From: a virus | Taxonomy: Duplodnaviria > Heunggongvirae > Uroviricota > Caudoviricetes | IMG/VR virus record: IMGVR_UViG_2617270953_000002 | Reading direction: 5' to 3' (one strand) | DNA: 8,455 nucleotides | In this document: positions 1,798-8,254 of the stretch, one piece after another | How positions within the stretch are numbered: position 1 is the first letter of the stretch | How the letters are laid out: every line of letters starts with the position of its first letter | The notes under the pieces: generated by a model | Seen by the model: only the letters and a program-made list of their open reading frames with translations | Told to the model about the DNA's origin: nothing | The model's database searches: none | Position numbers and translations under genes: made by a program

Positions 1798-2958
1798 TTA
1801 CCTCGCATTTAAGTAAACTACGTTCTCCTCTTGTGCCGTATTTGTGCCATTGCGATTTATAATCGCATCGATTTTGCTCGCGTGCTCGGTGAGATGCCCG
1901 GCTGAAAGGTGGGCGTATCTTTGAACCATTTCGAGAGTTTCCCATCCTCCCATCTCTTTAAGCGCAAGAAGAGAGACACCGGACTGAACCAGCCAGCTTG
2001 CCCAGGTATGCCTCAGGTCATGGAAGCGGAAGTTGCTAATGCCTGCCCGCTTTAACGCTCCCTTCCATGCCTTGTTGCTGTCGGTTCTCATCTTCCTTAC
2101 CGCTGCTGTTTTTGTTCCGTCGCTTCGGTAGGCAGGTTTGGTGTGGACAAATACCCATCTCTTATGGAGCCCCTGCTGTTTTCTTAATATCTGGCATGCG
2201 GTTTCGTTAAGAGGAACTCCGATCGCATTGCCAGCTTTTGTTTCATCAGGGTGCATCCATGCCATTTTCTTATCCAGATCGACCTGTGACCACTCAAGGT
2301 CTGTAACGTTGGAACGGCGAAGGCCTGTCGTGATTGCAAACATGACCACAGGGAAGAAATGAGGAGCAATTTCTGCAAACAGGCGCTTCGATTCCTCCTC
2401 TGTAAGCCATCTGATTCGTCCATTCTTAACGCGTGGTGTTGATATTTTGGGCGTCCTGTCAAGCCATCCCCATTCAACAGCCATATTGAGAATAGCGCGA
2501 AGTATTGCCAGATGCCGCGTCTTCGTTCCTTTGCTTGCCAGCTTTGGTTTATACTCCGGCACTGGCTTGCCAAGCCGCAAACACCTGTCCCGGCTCATCT
2601 CCCAGTTCAGGCGATGGCGGCGGTTTTCCATCCCGTCTACCGCCTCCATTATTTTTTCTGTTGTTATGTCAGAGAGAATGGTTTCTCTGAAGTGCAACAT
2701 CCAGAACGATATAATGCTCTTGTCATCATCAATGGACTTCTTATCCGATTTCTCACGCAGCCACCGTATGCAGGCTTCCTTGAATAGCTTTTTCGGTGAT
2801 TCCCCGAGATTTTTTACTCTCCACGCTTCTGCTTTCAGACGATCGTGAAGTTCTTGCGCTTGCCTTTTGTCCGATGTTTCAAGAGAGCGTCTAACTCTTG
2901 ATCCATCTGGCGCGACGAAATCACAGTGCCACGTGCCACCGCGTAGTTTGATTGACAT
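1798..2958 (-). CDS. int: P22-type lambdoid tyrosine integrase, apparently intact
   Basis: 386-aa ORF with ATG at 2958 and AGGAGG 8 nt upstream. N-terminus MSIKLRGGTWHCDF...SDKRQAQELHDRLKAEAWRV and C-terminus FRFHDLRHTWASWLVQSGV...EMGGWETLEMVQRYAHL closely match the phage P22 Int pattern (recalled from memory). The stop lies 14 nt from the tRNA-Thr fragment, as expected for int next to attL. Confidence 0.9.
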   Translation of the reverse strand: MSIKLRGGTWHCDFVAPDGSRVRRSLETSDKRQAQELHDRLKAEAWRVKNLGESPKKLFKEACIRWLREKSDKKSIDDDKSIISFWMLHFRETILSDITTEKIMEAVDGMENRRHRLNWEMSRDRCLRLGKPVPEYKPKLASKGTKTRHLAILRAILNMAVEWGWLDRTPKISTPRVKNGRIRWLTEEESKRLFAEIAPHFFPVVMFAITTGLRRSNVTDLEWSQVDLDKKMAWMHPDETKAGNAIGVPLNETACQILRKQQGLHKRWVFVHTKPAYRSDGTKTAAVRKMRTDSNKAWKGALKRAGISNFRFHDLRHTWASWLVQSGVSLLALKEMGGWETLEMVQRYAHLSAGHLTEHASKIDAIINRNGTNTAQEENVVYLNAR

Positions 2959-3182
2959 GCTTTAACCTCCTGCACATCAACCGCATTCACCGCGCTATTG
3001 TGTCTCACAGACTTAAGCGCCGCAATGCAGTCTGACTTGCAAATGCGATATGGACTTTTAGGTTTATCTGGATTTATCTTTGCGGCCTGAAGTCGTCCAC
3101 TTCGTATCCACTGCGTGATAGTGCCTTTGTCTACCTTCAGATACGATGCTGCCTCTTCACGAGTGAAGATTTCTTCTTCCAC
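2835..3182 (-). CDS. xis: Excisionase (Xis/AlpA-type HTH DNA-binding protein), 115 aa, GTG start
   Basis: N-terminal IFTREEAASYLKVDKGTITQWIRSGRLQAAKI is a typical excisionase helix-turn-helix. It sits immediately upstream of int and overlaps it by 124 nt in another frame. GTG at 3182 is preceded by GGAGA. The length is consistent with P22 Xis being unusually long (about 116 aa, from memory). Confidence 0.65.
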   Translation of the reverse strand: MEEEIFTREEAASYLKVDKGTITQWIRSGRLQAAKINPDKPKSPYRICKSDCIAALKSVRHNSAVNAVDVQEVKACQSNYAVARGTVISSRQMDQELDALLKHRTKGKRKNFTIV

Positions 3183-3267: not shown

Positions 3268-3612
3268 TTAGTCCTTGCGTAGCTCGCTGATTCTTCTGTA
3301 AGTCTCTGGTGCTTTGTTCCCGTACGTCTTCATTTCAGACTTCAACAGAGCAACGAGTGAATCCCATTCGTTGAGGATTCCTTTGAATGCCGGAACGCGC
3401 TTTGCAACCTTGTCGAATGAATCTCTGATTTCTGGAATCTGCTCAACAAGTGCAACGCATCGTCGGAAATCTGCTGCGTCATGTGGAGCGCCGAAGTGAT
3501 GACCATAGATATTCTTTTTCAGTCCACATGCGATTGAGGCAATAGTTGCGCTACTGATGCCGACATCGCCAGTCGATTGCCATTTCAAAACCTTCATAGC
3601 CAAATCTGACAT
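3268..3612 (-). CDS. Hypothetical prophage accessory protein, 114 aa
   Basis: ORF-track ORF 3268..3639 trimmed to the internal ATG at 3612, which is preceded by GGAGA with about 7 nt spacing. The longer N-terminal extension would run through the terminator hairpin. No family recognised. Confidence 0.6.
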   Translation of the reverse strand: MSDLAMKVLKWQSTGDVGISSATIASIACGLKKNIYGHHFGAPHDAADFRRCVALVEQIPEIRDSFDKVAKRVPAFKGILNEWDSLVALLKSEMKTYGNKAPETYRRISELRKD

Positions 3613-3623
3613 TTCTTGTCTCC

Positions 3624-3648
3624 AATAAAAAACCGCCATCAGGCGGCT
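3624..3648 (-). terminator. Putative intrinsic (rho-independent) terminator on the minus strand
   Basis: Minus strand reads AGCCGCC-tgat-GGCGGTT followed by TTTTTTTATT: a 5-7 bp GC stem, 4-nt loop and U-run, 65-90 nt downstream of the stop of the 3713..3892 gene. The stem is short, so strength is uncertain. Confidence 0.45.
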
Positions 3649-3712: not shown

Positions 3713-3892
3713 TTAGCTTTTTTCGTTGCCTTCGCTTTCTTTATTAATTTTGACAAACTCGTTTTTACCACGCTCTCCAAATGCGTCTTTAGAGTCGTTG
3801 TATCCGCAATCGCAGCACACATAATCATCAGACCATCCACGCATTGTTTTTTCTTTTGCAATATTTCCAGAACCGCATTTTGGACAAGACAT
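3713..3892 (-). CDS. Small zinc-ribbon protein (CPxCG ... CCDCG), 59 aa, moron-like
   Basis: ORF 3713..3925 trimmed to the ATG at 3892, which is preceded by GGAGGT about 8 nt upstream. Product MSCPKCGSGN...YVCCDCGYND has two Cys pairs spaced for a zinc ribbon. The locus is strongly AT-rich. Confidence 0.6.
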   Translation of the reverse strand: MSCPKCGSGNIAKEKTMRGWSDDYVCCDCGYNDSKDAFGERGKNEFVKINKESEGNEKS

Positions 3893-3988
3893 ATCACTAC
3901 CTCCAAAGCATGAGTGAGATGACAACGTAACATTGATTGGAGATTAACAATAGATTGCTGATGTAAAAGATATGTATAAGCTTCGCTT

Positions 3989-4627
3989 TCAAAGTGGAGG
4001 CTCTGGTAGCGGCATCCAGTGTGACGGCTCACATACCCCCTCAACACCATTCATGTAAAAGAATTGAAATAACCCATTACCTTTGTGAAACCCTACCATC
4101 TGCTCTTTAGTGTCTGAGCAATAAACCAAAACATCTTCTTCGTTTGGCATTCGATCACTACAGCTTATCCAACCATCAGGAGTTACCGGAGAGTTGCCAC
4201 CGGGAATATTTTCCGGAATATTTTGTTGTGCGTTTTGTGGTTGTTCGGATTTACCCTGAAGCATGGCGGCGCGGCAGGCGTTCCAGCCAGCTGTTCGCCC
4301 AAGCGCGTAAACTTCAGATGGCTCAAGATAATCAATGTCATGCCCATCCTCATCGTCGTTCTCAGGTAATGCAGCAGGTACTACCGGTACTGGCGGAGCG
4401 GCGTAGACTTCAATAATCCCATTATCAATAGGCCATTCCCCATCCTTGATGTAGTCACTTGTGCCGTCAACTTGCTGTTCTGCAATGTGGAATGCGCCAA
4501 TAGGCTCTGCTTCCAGCGATGCCAGTGCGATTTCATAAGCCCGACGCTCAATATTGTCTCGGACGTCCAGGCTGCCTATACGCTCTTTGATTTCTTTAAT
4601 CAGTTCTTTGTCGGTGAACGTTGTCAT
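3989..4627 (-). CDS. DUF551-domain prophage protein with an N-terminal helical domain and Pro-rich/acidic linker, 212 aa
   Basis: ATG at 4627 with AAGGA about 8 nt upstream. The C-terminal segment PDGWISCSDRMPNEEDVLVYC...GVCEPSHWMPLPEPP matches the DUF551 signature common in lambdoid 'ea' regions (from memory). The central linker is AAPPVPVVPAALPENDDEDGHDIDY. Confidence 0.75.
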   Translation of the reverse strand: MTTFTDKELIKEIKERIGSLDVRDNIERRAYEIALASLEAEPIGAFHIAEQQVDGTSDYIKDGEWPIDNGIIEVYAAPPVPVVPAALPENDDEDGHDIDYLEPSEVYALGRTAGWNACRAAMLQGKSEQPQNAQQNIPENIPGGNSPVTPDGWISCSDRMPNEEDVLVYCSDTKEQMVGFHKGNGLFQFFYMNGVEGVCEPSHWMPLPEPPL

Positions 4628-4637
4628 GTGTTAGTCC

Positions 4638-4901
4638 TTATCCTGCTGTGCTTTCAACTGATGAGGGGAATAAAATCTTTTCATCAAATCCGGCATTCAT
4701 ATCATGGACAGCAACACACCAATCCACCGACGAACGATTATCAAGAGCCTCCATGATTTCATCCATGCGGCGTAGGTCATAAAGGTAAATGCTTTTATCG
4801 CCAATGGTGTAAAAACCAATTTTTTTCGGTGATGGACAGCGATCAAGAACGTCCTGTAATTCGCTCAACCATGCTTGTTCTTTTTTTGTCAAAGTTGCCA
4901 T
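4638..4901 (-). CDS. Hypothetical prophage protein, 87 aa
   Basis: ATG at 4901 preceded by AAAGGAGA 6-7 nt upstream; the start lies 1 nt after the TGA of the upstream gene. No family recognised. Confidence 0.65.
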   Translation of the reverse strand: MATLTKKEQAWLSELQDVLDRCPSPKKIGFYTIGDKSIYLYDLRRMDEIMEALDNRSSVDWCVAVHDMNAGFDEKILFPSSVESTAG

Positions 4902-4902
4902 A

Positions 4903-5394
4903 TCACTCTCCTTTGATGCGAATGCCAGTGGTACTCATTCTCCTGATTTCCCAGAGCACACGAGGAACACCACCGTTTCCGACCGGATCGCGCTTACTCC
5001 GCATGGCGACGCTTGATTCCGCCCAGCTTTTTCTTGGAGGAAGCTCTTTCACACGAACAAAACCAGCTGCGCGAAGAGATGCTCCTGATTCATCTGCCTG
5101 GGTGTACGTAATACAACGTTGATAACCCATAGCCTTTGCTGCCCGCCAGACAGCACCATAAAGCGCGCTGTTAGCGTTGCGTTCTCCTGTGGTACATGTG
5201 CGATTTACTTCAAGCGTTAATCCATCGTCCAAATGTCGTGCAACAGGTCGACCAGCTGTCGCCACACCTATCAATTCTCCGGCATTATTTCTCAGACCAA
5301 TGCTGAATTTATGCCCCACTGGTGGTTTATTGTGTCGGTGGTGCTGTGCGATAAATTCCTGCGCCGCTTTCAGCGTTATAGGTGAAATGACCAT
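4903..5394 (-). CDS. Conserved prophage protein, 163 aa; possibly an acyl-CoA N-acyltransferase (GNAT-like) fold, assignment unverified
   Basis: ATG at 5394 overlaps the TGA of the upstream gene (TGATG), with AAGGAGGAG about 9 nt upstream. The ORF-track GTG at 5397 is one codon further upstream. Sequence shows HHRHNKPPVGHKF...LIGVATAGRPVARHLDDGLTLEVNRT...SALYGAVWRAAKAMGYQRCITYTQADESGASLRAAGF. The fold call is pattern intuition only. Confidence 0.7.
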   Translation of the reverse strand: MVISPITLKAAQEFIAQHHRHNKPPVGHKFSIGLRNNAGELIGVATAGRPVARHLDDGLTLEVNRTCTTGERNANSALYGAVWRAAKAMGYQRCITYTQADESGASLRAAGFVRVKELPPRKSWAESSVAMRSKRDPVGNGGVPRVLWEIRRMSTTGIRIKGE

Positions 5395-5873
5395 CACTCA
5401 GACTCCTCCTTGATGCCAGCGGCGCGGGAATCATTCCATCGCTTTACTTCTTCACTAATTACGTCAATGCATTCTTTCGAATCCATTAGGTAATCTTCAT
5501 CAAAAAGACGTTCCTGTTCGTTTTCTATCGCAACAATGATTGCTTCAACTAATTTTTGTGCCTGAGAATCACTTTCTAACTCTGCAATGCGCTTACTCCC
5601 ATCCGAGATAACACCTTCGTAATACTCACGCTGCTCGTTGAGTTTTGATTTTGTCTCCTCAAGCTCAACACGCAGCTTCCCTACCGTTAGCGCAATATCC
5701 TCGTTCTCCTGGTCGCGGCGTTTGATGTATTGCTGGTTTCTTTCCCGTTCATCCAGTAGTGCCAGCACAACCTGAGGTGTGACCTTCATACGAAATGCCA
5801 GCAATTTTTGTGGTGTGGCTGCTATTTTTATTGCTTCTGCCGCATCACGCAGTGCCTGATAGTCAATTGTCAT
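5394..5873 (-). CDS. Ead/Ea22-like early protein (coiled-coil), 159 aa
   Basis: N-terminus [22 protein letters not shown] matches the Ead/Ea22-like family start found in P22/lambda-type early regions (from memory); the centre is a charged coiled-coil-like segment. ATG at 5873 overlaps the upstream TGA (ATGA), with GAAGGA about 8 nt upstream. The ORF track starts 3 codons earlier. Confidence 0.7.
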   Translation of the reverse strand: MTIDYQALRDAAEAIKIAATPQKLLAFRMKVTPQVVLALLDERERNQQYIKRRDQENEDIALTVGKLRVELEETKSKLNEQREYYEGVISDGSKRIAELESDSQAQKLVEAIIVAIENEQERLFDEDYLMDSKECIDVISEEVKRWNDSRAAGIKEESE

Positions 5874-6514
5874 TCTCGCCATCCTTCACAGTTGTAATCA
5901 CTACAGCCTTCAAAATCATATGGGCTGTACTGCCAGGAGATTTTTCCGCAATGCGGACAATTCCAACGCACCTTCCCGCTTCGCGACTTCTTTCTTCTGT
6001 TCTGCTCTTTCAACCAGTCAGGCATGACCAAACCTGCGCCCTGAACCATTGTTCTGCGGTTAAAGTTATTGATATTGAACGTCCTGCGCTTTGCTGCATC
6101 AGCAATGGAAAATGGCAACCAAACTATTCCTGGTTCGTTTTTGTTGGCGACGCTAAAGATGGTCGCTTTACTGAAGTCATCTGTTGGCAATCCACCGTGT
6201 TGAAGCCAGTAAACATCGTTGCCGTTCCAGCTACCTTTTTTGTAGGCCACATACGCAGTGCAATCTGACTCAATCAGGCTTTCTGTAGGGATGTACTGGC
6301 AATCAACGTGCCACACTGCCATTGCATCCACGCTATCAGCGCAAACAGGCTGATCGATATCTCGCCCACAATTCCAGGCTTTTTGGGCTTCTTCCAGCGT
6401 GTAAACATGAGCGCGATCGATATCAGAACTGTAACCATTGCCGTTATGGCAATGGAATGAAGCGTTATTGCCCACAGTTTCACGCGAGCACATCATGTAA
6501 AAACGGTTAGTCAC
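5870..6514 (-). CDS. Hypothetical Cys/His-rich prophage protein, 214 aa, with a C-terminal zinc-ribbon-like motif
   Basis: Probable GTG start at 6514 overlapping the upstream TGA (GTGA), with strong AAGGAGG 6 nt upstream. The ORF-track start at 6535 is also GTG but lacks an SD. N-terminal [10 protein letters not shown]; C-terminal [11 protein letters not shown]...CSDYNCEGW. No family recognised. Confidence 0.7.
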
Positions 6515-6678
6515 TGGCTGCCTCCTTTGCGCCACATCGCATTCAGATATTTGTTTTCATTCACTGATGGAAAAGAATTTCTCTTAAGTAATTCCTCTCT
6601 CGATGGCATTGGCTTTACGCGTTGGCGAATAATCATTTCTGCCGGAAGAATGCCGGGATTGTATGCAAGTCCTCTCAT
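6511..6678 (-). CDS. Small hypothetical protein, 55 aa, translationally coupled to neighbours
   Basis: ATG at 6678 preceded by GAGGAA (about 7 nt spacing) which overlaps the TGA of the 6689..6982 gene. Its own TGA overlaps the GTG of the next gene. The ORF-track version (105 aa) has an N-terminal extension overlapping the upstream gene. Confidence 0.5.
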
Positions 6679-6688
6679 GGTAAATTCC

Positions 6689-6982
6689 TCAGTCATTACT
6701 GATAGCGCCATAACGTGAGCGGTAATTACGCAGGCGCGGGTCAATTTCAGGGAAGTGGGTATATGTGGCTTTGCGGAATGGTCGGATTGATGTCTGGTAA
6801 ATTCGCTCGCGTTCTTCTTTCTCTGCAAGCCATATACAGTGGCGAAATTCCTTTTCCTCTTTCGTTTCCTGCGGTAGAGACATTATCCGGTCGTAGTTTT
6901 TTCTGAATTTATCCAGCACCTCCGATACGGAATTGCCGGAACAGCGGCGCACGTCGTCCGCACCATACAGAGGCGCTGGCAT
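6689..6982 (-). CDS. Hypothetical prophage protein, 97 aa
   Basis: ATG at 6982 with AAGGA about 9 nt upstream, 23 nt after the SSB stop. No family recognised. Confidence 0.65.
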
Positions 6983-7005: not shown

Positions 7006-7389
7006 TCAGAATGGGATGGAATCGTCGTATACAGGAGTGTTCTGCTGGTTACTACTTTGCCGCTGCGGGCCATTTCCTGAAGCTGCAAATCCAATCTTTG
7101 CATTCAGTAATTCAAGAGTGATTGATTGACCATTTTGCCCCTGATAAACATCAACCCTGATGTTTTCTCCGGTAATTTCCACAATTCCACCTTCAACAAG
7201 AACACTACGGTAGTAATCCGCTTGCGCTCCCGGCTTGGCAAATACAACGGCGCTGTAGTTTATCCATTCTTTCTTTTTTGTCTGGCGATCGTAATACTGA
7301 ACGCCAGCACGGATGTTGAATCCGATATTTTCCCCGGCCTGAAACTCTCTTGCGGGCTTGTTTAGTCTTACAGTAATCGAATGTGCCAT
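7006..7389 (-). CDS. ssb: Phage single-stranded DNA-binding protein (compact OB fold with acidic SSB-type C-terminal tip), 127 aa
   Basis: ATG at 7387-7389 overlaps the erf TAA (TAATG). The C-terminus ...NTPVYDDSIPF matches the conserved DDDIPF tip of bacterial SSB. The body (ITVRL...EWINYSAVVFAK...VLVEGGIVEITGENIRVDVYQGQNGQSITLELLNAKI) resembles OB-fold strands. The ORF track's 30-aa N-terminal extension would overlap erf. Confidence 0.7.
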   Translation of the reverse strand: MAHSITVRLNKPAREFQAGENIGFNIRAGVQYYDRQTKKKEWINYSAVVFAKPGAQADYYRSVLVEGGIVEITGENIRVDVYQGQNGQSITLELLNAKIGFAASGNGPQRQSSNQQNTPVYDDSIPF

Positions 7390-7994
7390 TAAGCAGCCGC
7401 TCCTTCTAATTCGTCTCGTCTGATGTTGTAAACGTCCTGCGCTTTGTGCTGCTCCGGTGTGCCTTCGAGCATCTTCCACGCTTTGGCGAACGCCTGTTTA
7501 AGCTCTTCCACGGTGTTTTTCTGCATTGCTGCGTCAGTGAATGCTTTTAGAACCTGTTCAGGTGTAGGTGATGGTTTTGATTGCTTTGCTGCTGCGTTCT
7601 GCTGATGTTTATGCTCGTCTGTATCTGCATCTTTCGCATCATCAATGCCGAACAAACCATTAAGGCAATACTTGCGCGCATAAGAGCTTGTAGCTCCAGT
7701 AACTTGTGCAGAATCCATTCCTTTCTTGCTTTCTTCCTCTCTTGCGAGAGCGGTTGCCGTATGACTGTTTTCGCCATCGGTAATAGTTGCCGTGGCTTTC
7801 ACGTAATACCGATCACCAATCAACACAACTTCATCGCTGATTGATAAAAACAGGCCATTCAGTAACGGCTTAACGCCTTCAAGAATGTCTTCGCAGCTTC
7901 TGTATTTATATTTACCGAATGAGTTGTACTGATTCTTTGGCGCGTTCAGATTCTCCTGAATAGCTGCCAGTCTTGCATAAAATTCTTTGCTCAT
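7389..7994 (-). CDS. erf: Erf-family single-strand annealing recombinase (essential recombination function), 201 aa
   Basis: From the ATG at 7994 the product begins MSKEFYARLAAIQENLNAPKNQYNSFGKYKYRSCEDILEGVKPLL...GDRYYVKATATITDGENSH...GATSSYARKYCLNGLFGIDDAKDA, matching phage P22 Erf through the N-terminal annealing domain (from memory). The C-terminal third seems divergent. Confidence 0.9.
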   Translation of the reverse strand: MSKEFYARLAAIQENLNAPKNQYNSFGKYKYRSCEDILEGVKPLLNGLFLSISDEVVLIGDRYYVKATATITDGENSHTATALAREEESKKGMDSAQVTGATSSYARKYCLNGLFGIDDAKDADTDEHKHQQNAAAKQSKPSPTPEQVLKAFTDAAMQKNTVEELKQAFAKAWKMLEGTPEQHKAQDVYNIRRDELEGAAA

Positions 7995-8095
7995 ATGATT
8001 GTTCTCAGAATGGACACGGCCCAAGGAAATAACGCTGATTTAATACTTCTACTCGGGACAAATTAAGGCATACCCGCATTCCTTCGCGGTCGCCA

Positions 8096-8254
8096 TTATG
8101 GCGATACCAGAGAGCTTTCTGCGTGTACATGCGTCTCTGTAACTTGCTCTCCTTCACTGTGGTTGCAAGTGACATGAATATCTCCTTCGTTACCGATTAA
8201 ATCTTTCATCTGACGAATGAATTCTTCGTCTGACCAGTTATCTGTAAAACTCAT
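8096..8254 (-). CDS. Small acidic/His-containing hypothetical protein, 52 aa, in the position occupied by kil in P22/lambda
   Basis: ATG at 8254 overlaps the TGA of the cIII-like gene (ATGA). Product MSFTDNWSDEEFIRQMKDLIGNEGDIHVTCNHSEGEQVTETHVHAESSLVSP. The functional call is positional only. Confidence 0.5.
   Translation of the reverse strand: MSFTDNWSDEEFIRQMKDLIGNEGDIHVTCNHSEGEQVTETHVHAESSLVSP

Follow-up and report, generated by a model that had tools for sequence, protein, structure and literature searches.

The DNA analyzed here, hereafter the window, comprises 8,455 nucleotides (nt) of IMG/VR virus record IMGVR_UViG_2617270953_000002 (Caudoviricetes). It corresponds to the early-left arm of a prophage of the P22-like or lambdoid type, and this arm lies entirely on the minus strand. 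We studied one gene of this arm, the target gene, which encodes a 163-amino-acid (aa) protein of the XF1762 family that sequence profiles and a structural model relate to Mom, the DNA modification protein of phage Mu. The open reading frame (ORF) starts with an ATG at position 5394 and ends with a TGA stop codon at 4903-4905, and the ATG of the next gene, at 4901, is located one base beyond this stop. The minus strand around the start reads ATC AAGGAGGAG TCTGAG TGATG GTC, in which AAGGAGGAG is a strong Shine-Dalgarno sequence and TGATG is an overlap with the preceding ORF, the Ead/Ea22-like gene, whose TGA stop codon (5396-5394) has one A in common with the ATG of the target gene. This overlap implies that translation of the two genes is coupled. 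A coupled start had been proposed in an earlier note, generated by a model from the sequence alone, and both the overlap and the Shine-Dalgarno sequence are indeed present. An alternative GTG start codon at 5397 would result in a protein of 164 aa, but the ATG is favoured because the N-terminus of the homologues is M-x-I-x-P-I-T-L.

Homology searches yielded 5,881 clusters of homologues at 90% identity and, at E<=1e-3, 3,296 clusters at 50% identity, and the target is therefore a real gene, far beyond chance. The same search tool gave 852 clusters at 90% identity for Mom. The target DNA is present in 144 of the 5,426 complete Escherichia coli genomes (~2.7%) with 95-99.6% identity, always annotated as "XF1762 family protein", and these occurrences amount to 151 places, 20 of which are on plasmids. 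Identical or near-identical proteins are encoded by 80 IMG/VR viral contigs and by phages Kapi1 (97.5% identical gene), TL-2011a and PhiR44_2. More distant homologues are found in phages or prophages of Pectobacterium (ZF40, 72%), Mycobacterium abscessus (55%), Burkholderia (phi1026b gp66), Streptomyces, Microbacterium, Synechococcus, Pelagibacter and Vibrio, and also in genomes of Clostridia, Acidobacteria, Planctomycetes, Thermodesulfobacteriota and others. The family thus extends over phages and prophages of Proteobacteria, Actinobacteria, Firmicutes, Cyanobacteria, Planctomycetes and other phyla.

The earlier note had quoted four strings as a conserved pattern, HHRHNKPP, GVATAGRPVARHLDDG, SALYGAVWRAAKAMGY and ESGASLRAAGF. 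All four are present in the translation, and an alignment of 72 diverse XF1762 sequences (40-89% identity), to which all fractions of 72 given below refer, revealed that these blocks do hold conserved residues: H19, R20 and H21; G48, R49, P50 and R53; S76, L78, Y79, R84, G90 and Y91; and E102, G104, S106, L107 and G111. The most telling conserved block is EVNR, which contains the invariant R65 and lies outside these four strings. The protein is strongly basic, with an isoelectric point (pI) of 10.5. The median pI of the family is 9.9, with values above 8 for 69 of the 72 members, and that of Mu Mom is also 9.9. The features of the target gene and of the other genes in the window are listed in Table 1.

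Table 1. Features of the target gene, with the codon positions of selected residues, and other genes in the window (residues of Mom numbered according to Silva et al. 2026).
Feature	Position	Strand	Remarks
Target gene, coding sequence	4903..5394	minus	163 aa plus TGA stop; XF1762 family, Mom-like GNAT-fold transferase (ORF and translation, profile matches, AlphaFold2 model)
Shine-Dalgarno sequence AAGGAGGAG	5403..5411	minus	8 nt 5' of the ATG, within the end of the Ead/Ea22-like gene; read from sequence
TGATG stop/start overlap	5392..5396	minus	with the upstream Ead/Ea22-like ORF; read from sequence
H19-R20-H21, "HRH" motif	5332..5340	minus	conserved in 71/72, 71/72 and 69/72; H19 aligns with Mom H58, R20 replaces Y59
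R65, strand β4 (EVNR)	5200..5202	minus	72/72; aligns with essential Mom R111 in all hhalign runs
N73-A-N-S76, non-canonical β4-α3 loop	5167..5178	minus	N73 66/72, S76 68/72; align with Mom N121 and S124
E102, conserved acid, β5-α4 loop	5089..5091	minus	70/72; possible counterpart of Mom D149/E150, equivalence uncertain
Residues 119-144, basic β6-β7 insertion with W124	4963..5040	minus	pLDDT 55-58; one 4-residue helix; 5 K+R versus 2 D+E
ERF recombinase	7389-8024	minus	
SSB-like	7006-7479	minus	
Abc2 anti-RecBCD	6689-6982	minus	
phrog_2457 protein	5870-6535	minus	221 aa; PHROG 2457, E 9e-119; no Pfam match
Ead/Ea22-like	5394-5882	minus	
phrog_1714 protein	4638-4901	minus	87 aa; no Pfam match
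DUF551	3989-4627	minus	
Zinc-ribbon protein	3713-3925	minus	70 aa; PHROG 2945; sub-threshold match to Lar restriction alleviation (22.1 versus 28.6 bits)
phrog_1229	3268-3639	minus	
Excisionase	2835-3182	minus	
Integrase	1798-2958	minus	
Second tyrosine integrase	343-1551	minus	P4-type Arm-DNA-binding domain
IS3-family transposase fragment	114-329	plus	71 aa; rve_2/rve_3

The NCBIfam model XF1762_fam (NF045478) matched the target with 207.4 bits (E 7.7e-62; cutoff 50 bits). The match covers residues 3-136 of the protein and positions 2-130 of the 143 positions of the profile; the target is a full-length member of this family, whose name carries no function. The target also matched PHROG 1384, "Mom-like DNA modification protein", with an E value of 9.8e-44. 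This PHROG also takes in Mu Mom itself (E 7.9e-84) and the homologues of phi1026b and the Mycobacterium prophages (~1e-40). When the protein was compared with Pfam at E<=10, Mom (PF25680) was the only family retrieved (24.0 bits, below the gathering threshold of 27.1 bits; E 3.6e-5; profile positions 3-126 of 202), and families of the Acetyltransf type were not. Similarly, the Pfam Mom profile was matched by 48 of the 72 diverse relatives (E<=0.01), a few of which exceed the threshold (27.3-28.1 bits), and none of the 72 matched an ordinary acetyltransferase family. Comparison by hhalign of the 72-sequence XF1762 alignment with an alignment of 42 Mom sequences gave an E value of 2.2e-4 over 119 columns; global and greedy runs extended the alignment to the C-terminus. 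The family is therefore not new to databases: RefSeq names its members "XF1762 family protein", and the PHROGs and several RefSeq phage records use "Mom-like DNA modification protein".

The AlphaFold2 model of the target, based on a 42-sequence alignment, has a mean predicted local distance difference test (pLDDT) score of 84.5 and a predicted template modelling (pTM) score of 0.77. It shows a mixed arrangement of β-sheet and helices in the GNAT order β1-α1-β2-β3-β4-α3-β5-α4-β6-β7, and as modelled the fold is certainly that of a GNAT. The first match of a Foldseek search against the PDB was the crystal structure of Mom (8BV8; E 4e-8; query template modelling score, TMq, 0.69). Behind it ranked GNAT acetyltransferases, which numbered in the hundreds (E ~5e-7, TMq 0.53-0.65). 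Among the predicted viral structures of BFVD, the nearest matches were XF1762-type domains, one of them within an 877-aa ART-PolyVal polyvalent protein. Next came many proteins of 400-700 aa annotated as "endonuclease-like" or "homing endonuclease", together with an annotated Mom, and generic GNATs appeared only from rank 34 onwards. The specific tie of the target to the Mom clade is thus supported by sequence profiles and by the ranking of modelled structures. The earlier note had proposed an accessory enzyme that would modify DNA or protein and had loosely suggested a GNAT-like or Mom-type fold; the intuition about the fold was correct, given that Mom is the sole Pfam family matched, that PHROG 1384 is common to both proteins and that 8BV8 is the top structural match. 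A match to an unrelated, non-enzymatic fold was not obtained, and residues of catalytic type are conserved across the homologues.

Mom transfers glycine from Gly-tRNA(Gly) to the N6 of adenine in double-stranded DNA, and the product rearranges to N6-carbamoylmethyl-adenine (6-NcmdA) (PMC13219725). We use the residue numbers of Silva et al. 2026; those of the 231-aa numbering run 10 lower (R111 = R101, N121 = N111, S124 = S114, W181 = W171). Residues R111, S124 and R151 are essential in Mom, D149 is also listed as essential and its replacement by alanine greatly reduces activity, and H58, Y59, Y159, W181 and the dimer-interface residue W48 are important (PMC13219725). A helix-turn-helix (HTH)-like insertion (~175-209), predicted to bind DNA, is indispensable since its deletion abolishes activity, the N-terminal region 11-19 adds to activity, and the Mom homologues assayed by Silva et al. 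2026 are described as keeping the HTH-like insertion (PMC13219725). Alignment of the two families indicated that part of this set is kept in XF1762. The equivalents of R111 and S124 are R65 and S76 in every hhalign run, and H58 and N121 correspond to H19 and N73 (Table 1). G156 is kept as G104 (71/72), and W181 is probably kept as W124 (68/72), although the latter pairing comes from the extended runs, in which the alignment is of lower confidence. As for R65, Karambelkar et al. 2020 (PMC7261163) noted that homologues of Mom retain the β4 arginine, which GNATs as a whole do not. The loop between β4 and α3 is also unlike that of a typical GNAT. The canonical Q/R-x-x-G-x-G/A pyrophosphate loop, which binds coenzyme A (CoA), is not present in the target, whose sequence at this place is R72-N-A-N-S-A77 without glycines, and both XF1762 and Mom (R-N-S-E-S-R) have R-N-x-x-S instead. 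Finally, the basic β6-β7 insertion of the target occupies the topological position that in Mom holds the HTH-like insertion. From these alignments, XF1762 is best described as a compact sister family of Mom in which the Arg/Ser/His core and the putative donor loop are kept and the predicted acceptor side is remodelled.

The genes flanking the target homologues were analyzed in the loci of 80 close relatives. The phrog_1714 gene is directly downstream in 34 of the 78 close viral loci, and an Ea22 gene is directly upstream in 11 of 75. The flanks are thus variable, and the target moves as a single-gene module. The phrog_1714 protein could be a functional partner of the target or merely belong to a linked mosaic module. 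No obligate partner gene was identified in 36 diverse loci, whose 121 flanking ORFs were scanned with Pfam; no family was present in more than 2-3 of these ORFs, and BLASTP clustering of the neighbours in 39 diverse loci did not reveal a recurrent neighbour family. DNA methylases were the commonest functionally specific Pfam class among the flanking ORFs, with five cases (three C5 and two N6/N4). A toxin-antitoxin role of the TacT/AtaT type was rejected because a conserved antitoxin neighbour was not detected in the 80 close loci or, among families with at least two matches, in the 36 diverse ones.

Several individual loci and proteins connect the XF1762 domain with DNA-modifying and DNA-cutting enzymes, to which it is recurrently fused or adjacent. 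In phi1026b, gp66 overlaps by 4 nt the downstream gene 67, which encodes a 433-aa DNA methyltransferase and is followed by a ParB-like gene (positions 3995-5739 of locus L003), and gp66-gp67 is possibly a two-enzyme DNA-modification cassette. In the M. abscessus prophages, a DNA methyltransferase gene lies 1 kb upstream of the XF1762 homologue and a gene for an HNH endonuclease immediately downstream. In ZF40, the homologue is located between the lysis and terminase genes. Fusions were sought in the longer proteins among the best 150 representatives at 50% identity (e.g., P0324, P0285, P0386, P0332, P0358 and P0267). In these proteins the XF1762 domain is joined to a C5 DNA methylase, a D12 N6-adenine DNA methylase, a PAPS reductase, YodL plus LPD28 polyvalent-protein domains, DUF6884, a recombinase fragment or a β-lactamase-fold domain, and one protein contains the domain twice in tandem. 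In jumbo phages and others, Mom domains that are fused to domains with a restriction-endonuclease fold or to those of homing endonucleases have been read as momylation-plus-restriction modules (Iyer et al. 2021, PMC7824862). The target resembles these systems in that its BFVD neighbours carry an XF1762-type domain in endonuclease proteins and in that it has weak PHROG matches to such families; the logic, protection of self DNA by base modification, would be the same. By contrast, the target is stand-alone: the window contains no nuclease partner, and none recurs among the neighbours.

The target gene lies in the early-left erf-ssb-abc2-ea-xis-int operon (Table 1). This operon forms a cluster of anti-nuclease functions, given the presence of abc2 and of the gene for the Lar-like zinc-ribbon protein. 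Promoter-like sites were not found on the strand of the target between position 8248 and the gene, and most simply the target is an internal member of the early operon, not expressed in the lysogen but switched on by induction. The genetic organization at mom is different. In Mu, mom is overlapped by com and is preceded by gin and a late promoter, whereas the target locus has neither a late-gene position nor a com-like translational activator. A tRNA gene was not detected in the window, and the target did not match any PADLOC defence system.

We consider that there is an even chance that the target is a stand-alone Mom-like transferase that would acylate or aminoacylate a nucleobase in DNA and protect it against host nucleases. 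DNA modification is favoured because of the pI of 10.5, the fusions to DNA enzymes, the occasional methylase neighbours and the place of the gene among anti-nuclease functions; that DNA is the acceptor, as well as the donor, the product and the anti-restriction role, we infer by homology and from the fusions and the context. In such a mechanism, an activated acyl or aminoacyl donor would be held in the GNAT cleft, lined by the non-canonical N73/S76 loop. This donor would be the 3' end of an aminoacyl-tRNA, as in Mom, or possibly acyl-CoA. Positioning and activation of the acceptor would fall to R65, the H19-R20-H21 motif and E102, and the acyl group would be passed to the exocyclic amine of a DNA base. 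Transcription within the P22-like early-left operon, upon induction or infection, would cause replicating phage DNA to be marked, and the marked progeny DNA would then be protected when it meets restriction enzymes or other nucleases of the next host. FemX, L/F-transferase, MprF and PacB have the GNAT fold in common with the target, for which an aminoacyl-tRNA ester donor is possible, as has been argued for Mom (PMC13219725). They differ in showing no detectable sequence similarity to the target, in having peptides, proteins or lipids as acceptors and in not being encoded by accessory genes of phages.

A number of observations weigh against a Mom-like DNA modifier. Pairwise BLASTP between the target and Mu Mom was insignificant (E 0.24), Mom 8BV8 was not reached when PDB chains were searched with the single target sequence or with either of two family profiles, and the hhalign probability was only 45% (15% in an earlier comparison with a shallow XF1762 alignment with an effective number of sequences, Neff, of 1.7). 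The relationship is visible only with the Pfam and PHROG profiles, hhalign and structure. At the level of residues, essential R151 of Mom corresponds to variable position 99 (L/Q/R; Arg in 13/72), Y59 is replaced by R20 (Arg in 71/72) and Y159 by L107 (Leu in 65/72), and D149 falls in a gap of the hhalign alignment, so that its equivalence to the nearest conserved acid, E102, is uncertain. The β6-β7 segment is ~18 residues shorter than that of Mom, and no HTH was predicted in it. As to context, the methylase association is modest (the five flanking ORFs mentioned above), and some of the fusions, which were read from proteins alone, could be gene-calling artefacts. Moreover, Mom is a tightly regulated late gene, whereas the target is an early-operon gene without such regulation, which would be unexpected if its product had Mom-like toxicity. 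Lastly, our literature search identified neither a paper that mentions the XF1762 family nor an experiment on any of its proteins.

Alternatively, the target could be a true functional orthologue of Mu Mom, which would use Gly-tRNA(Gly) as donor, form 6-NcmdA by N6 glycylation and confer broad anti-restriction. The two proteins are alike in their GNAT fold, PHROG and R-N-x-x-S loop, in having an extra β6-β7 segment and a basic pI and in being phage-borne single-gene systems; R65 and S76 preserve the catalytic residues R111 and S124, and Mom heads the Foldseek list. However, with 163 aa the target is much shorter than Mom (231 aa), it lacks the first ~29 residues of Mom including the basic tail, and K9, Lys or Arg throughout the XF1762 family, takes the place of the dimer-interface residue W48. 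Its Pfam Mom score also falls short of the gathering threshold. Mom is controlled as a late gene by com, Dam and OxyR-type regulation, none of which applies to the early target gene. Mu Mom did not match any NCBIfam model, including that of XF1762, and because of this and the insignificant BLASTP result, XF1762 and Mom are, as far as their sequences tell, distinct families linked at the profile level. The loss of several residues essential in Mom and of the HTH-like insertion, which is absent or truncated in the target, argues that the target is not an orthologue, and we regard orthology as quite improbable.

With the HTH-like insertion missing and residues of the acceptor side replaced, there is room for two other activities. 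The target might be an acyl-CoA-dependent acetyltransferase that acts on a protein or small molecule, for instance to inactivate a host defence or takeover target, so that the link with Mom would be one of ancestry. AcrVA5 is an example of a GNAT anti-CRISPR protein that acts by lysine acetylation. We consider this unlikely in view of the non-canonical loop, in which the conserved residues are N73 and S76 and not glycines, and of the Pfam search, which retrieved Mom alone. In addition, the invariant β4 arginine is specific to Mom and not general in GNATs (PMC7261163), the fusion partners and neighbours are DNA enzymes and not protein targets, and the pI is extremely basic. The other activity would be modification of RNA, in which acylation of tRNA or aminoacyl-tRNA, as performed by the GNAT toxins TacT and AtaT or the enzyme TmcA, would reprogramme or shut down host translation early. 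Mom binds charged tRNA and tRNA-acting GNATs exist (PMC13219725), and a very basic, early-expressed protein that lacks the proposed DNA-binding insertion of Mom would suit this activity. We nevertheless consider it very unlikely: a conserved adjoining antitoxin-like gene is missing, the flanks are variable and the 36 diverse loci lack a recurrent partner, TacT- or AtaT-type structures are absent from the top 50-60 listed fold matches, PADLOC gave no match, and in its fusions the domain accompanies DNA methylases and endonucleases but not translation factors.

Returning to a Mom-like DNA modifier, the donor, the target base or the product may differ from those of Mom, because Y59, R151, Y159 and the HTH-like insertion are not conserved. 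More tentatively, and with a probability that we place clearly below even, the whole XF1762 family may constitute, within the Mom clade, a minimal branch devoid of the HTH that is expressed early from temperate phages, occurs in many bacterial phyla and carries out a base modification of DNA or another nucleic acid unlike 6-NcmdA. The donor could then be another aminoacyl-tRNA or acyl compound, or the target could be another base. If so, this would represent a widespread and undescribed DNA hypermodification that is commoner than momylation (5,881 versus 852 clusters at 90% identity).

The chemistry of Mom has been solved only recently, and XF1762, for which Mom is the nearest relative to have been characterised, is the closest relative of this enzyme and, by the same search tool, a family several-fold larger. 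If XF1762 proteins modify DNA, a base modification not described before could come to light, and the family could offer a minimal scaffold for the tRNA-dependent acylation of nucleic acids. This would matter for the evasion of restriction, for artefacts in the sequencing of prophage-rich genomes and for enzyme tools. If they do not, the family would show that the Mom fold has been recruited to or from another function. Anything new here would lie in the chemistry of XF1762, since the Mom-like idea itself is correct and already present in databases; for this window, the result is a modest one that concerns an already-annotated accessory gene in the mosaic "ea" region of a P22-like prophage.

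Some other features of the window deserve mention. The cysteine-rich C-terminus of the phrog_2457 protein (CPHCGK...CSDYNCEGW) resembles a zinc ribbon. The SSB-like ORF, if read from the listed GTG start codon, shares 91 nt with the end of erf. With the internal ATG at 7389 (MAHSITV...) as start, the two genes would instead have a one-base stop/start overlap as at the target gene, which suggests that the listed start is over-extended. The match to the catalytic domain in the second tyrosine integrase ends at profile position 156 of 172, and the IS3-family transposase fragment abuts this gene. The region 114-1551 looks like the remnant of another integrative element, cut by an insertion sequence, beside the integrase gene of the prophage.

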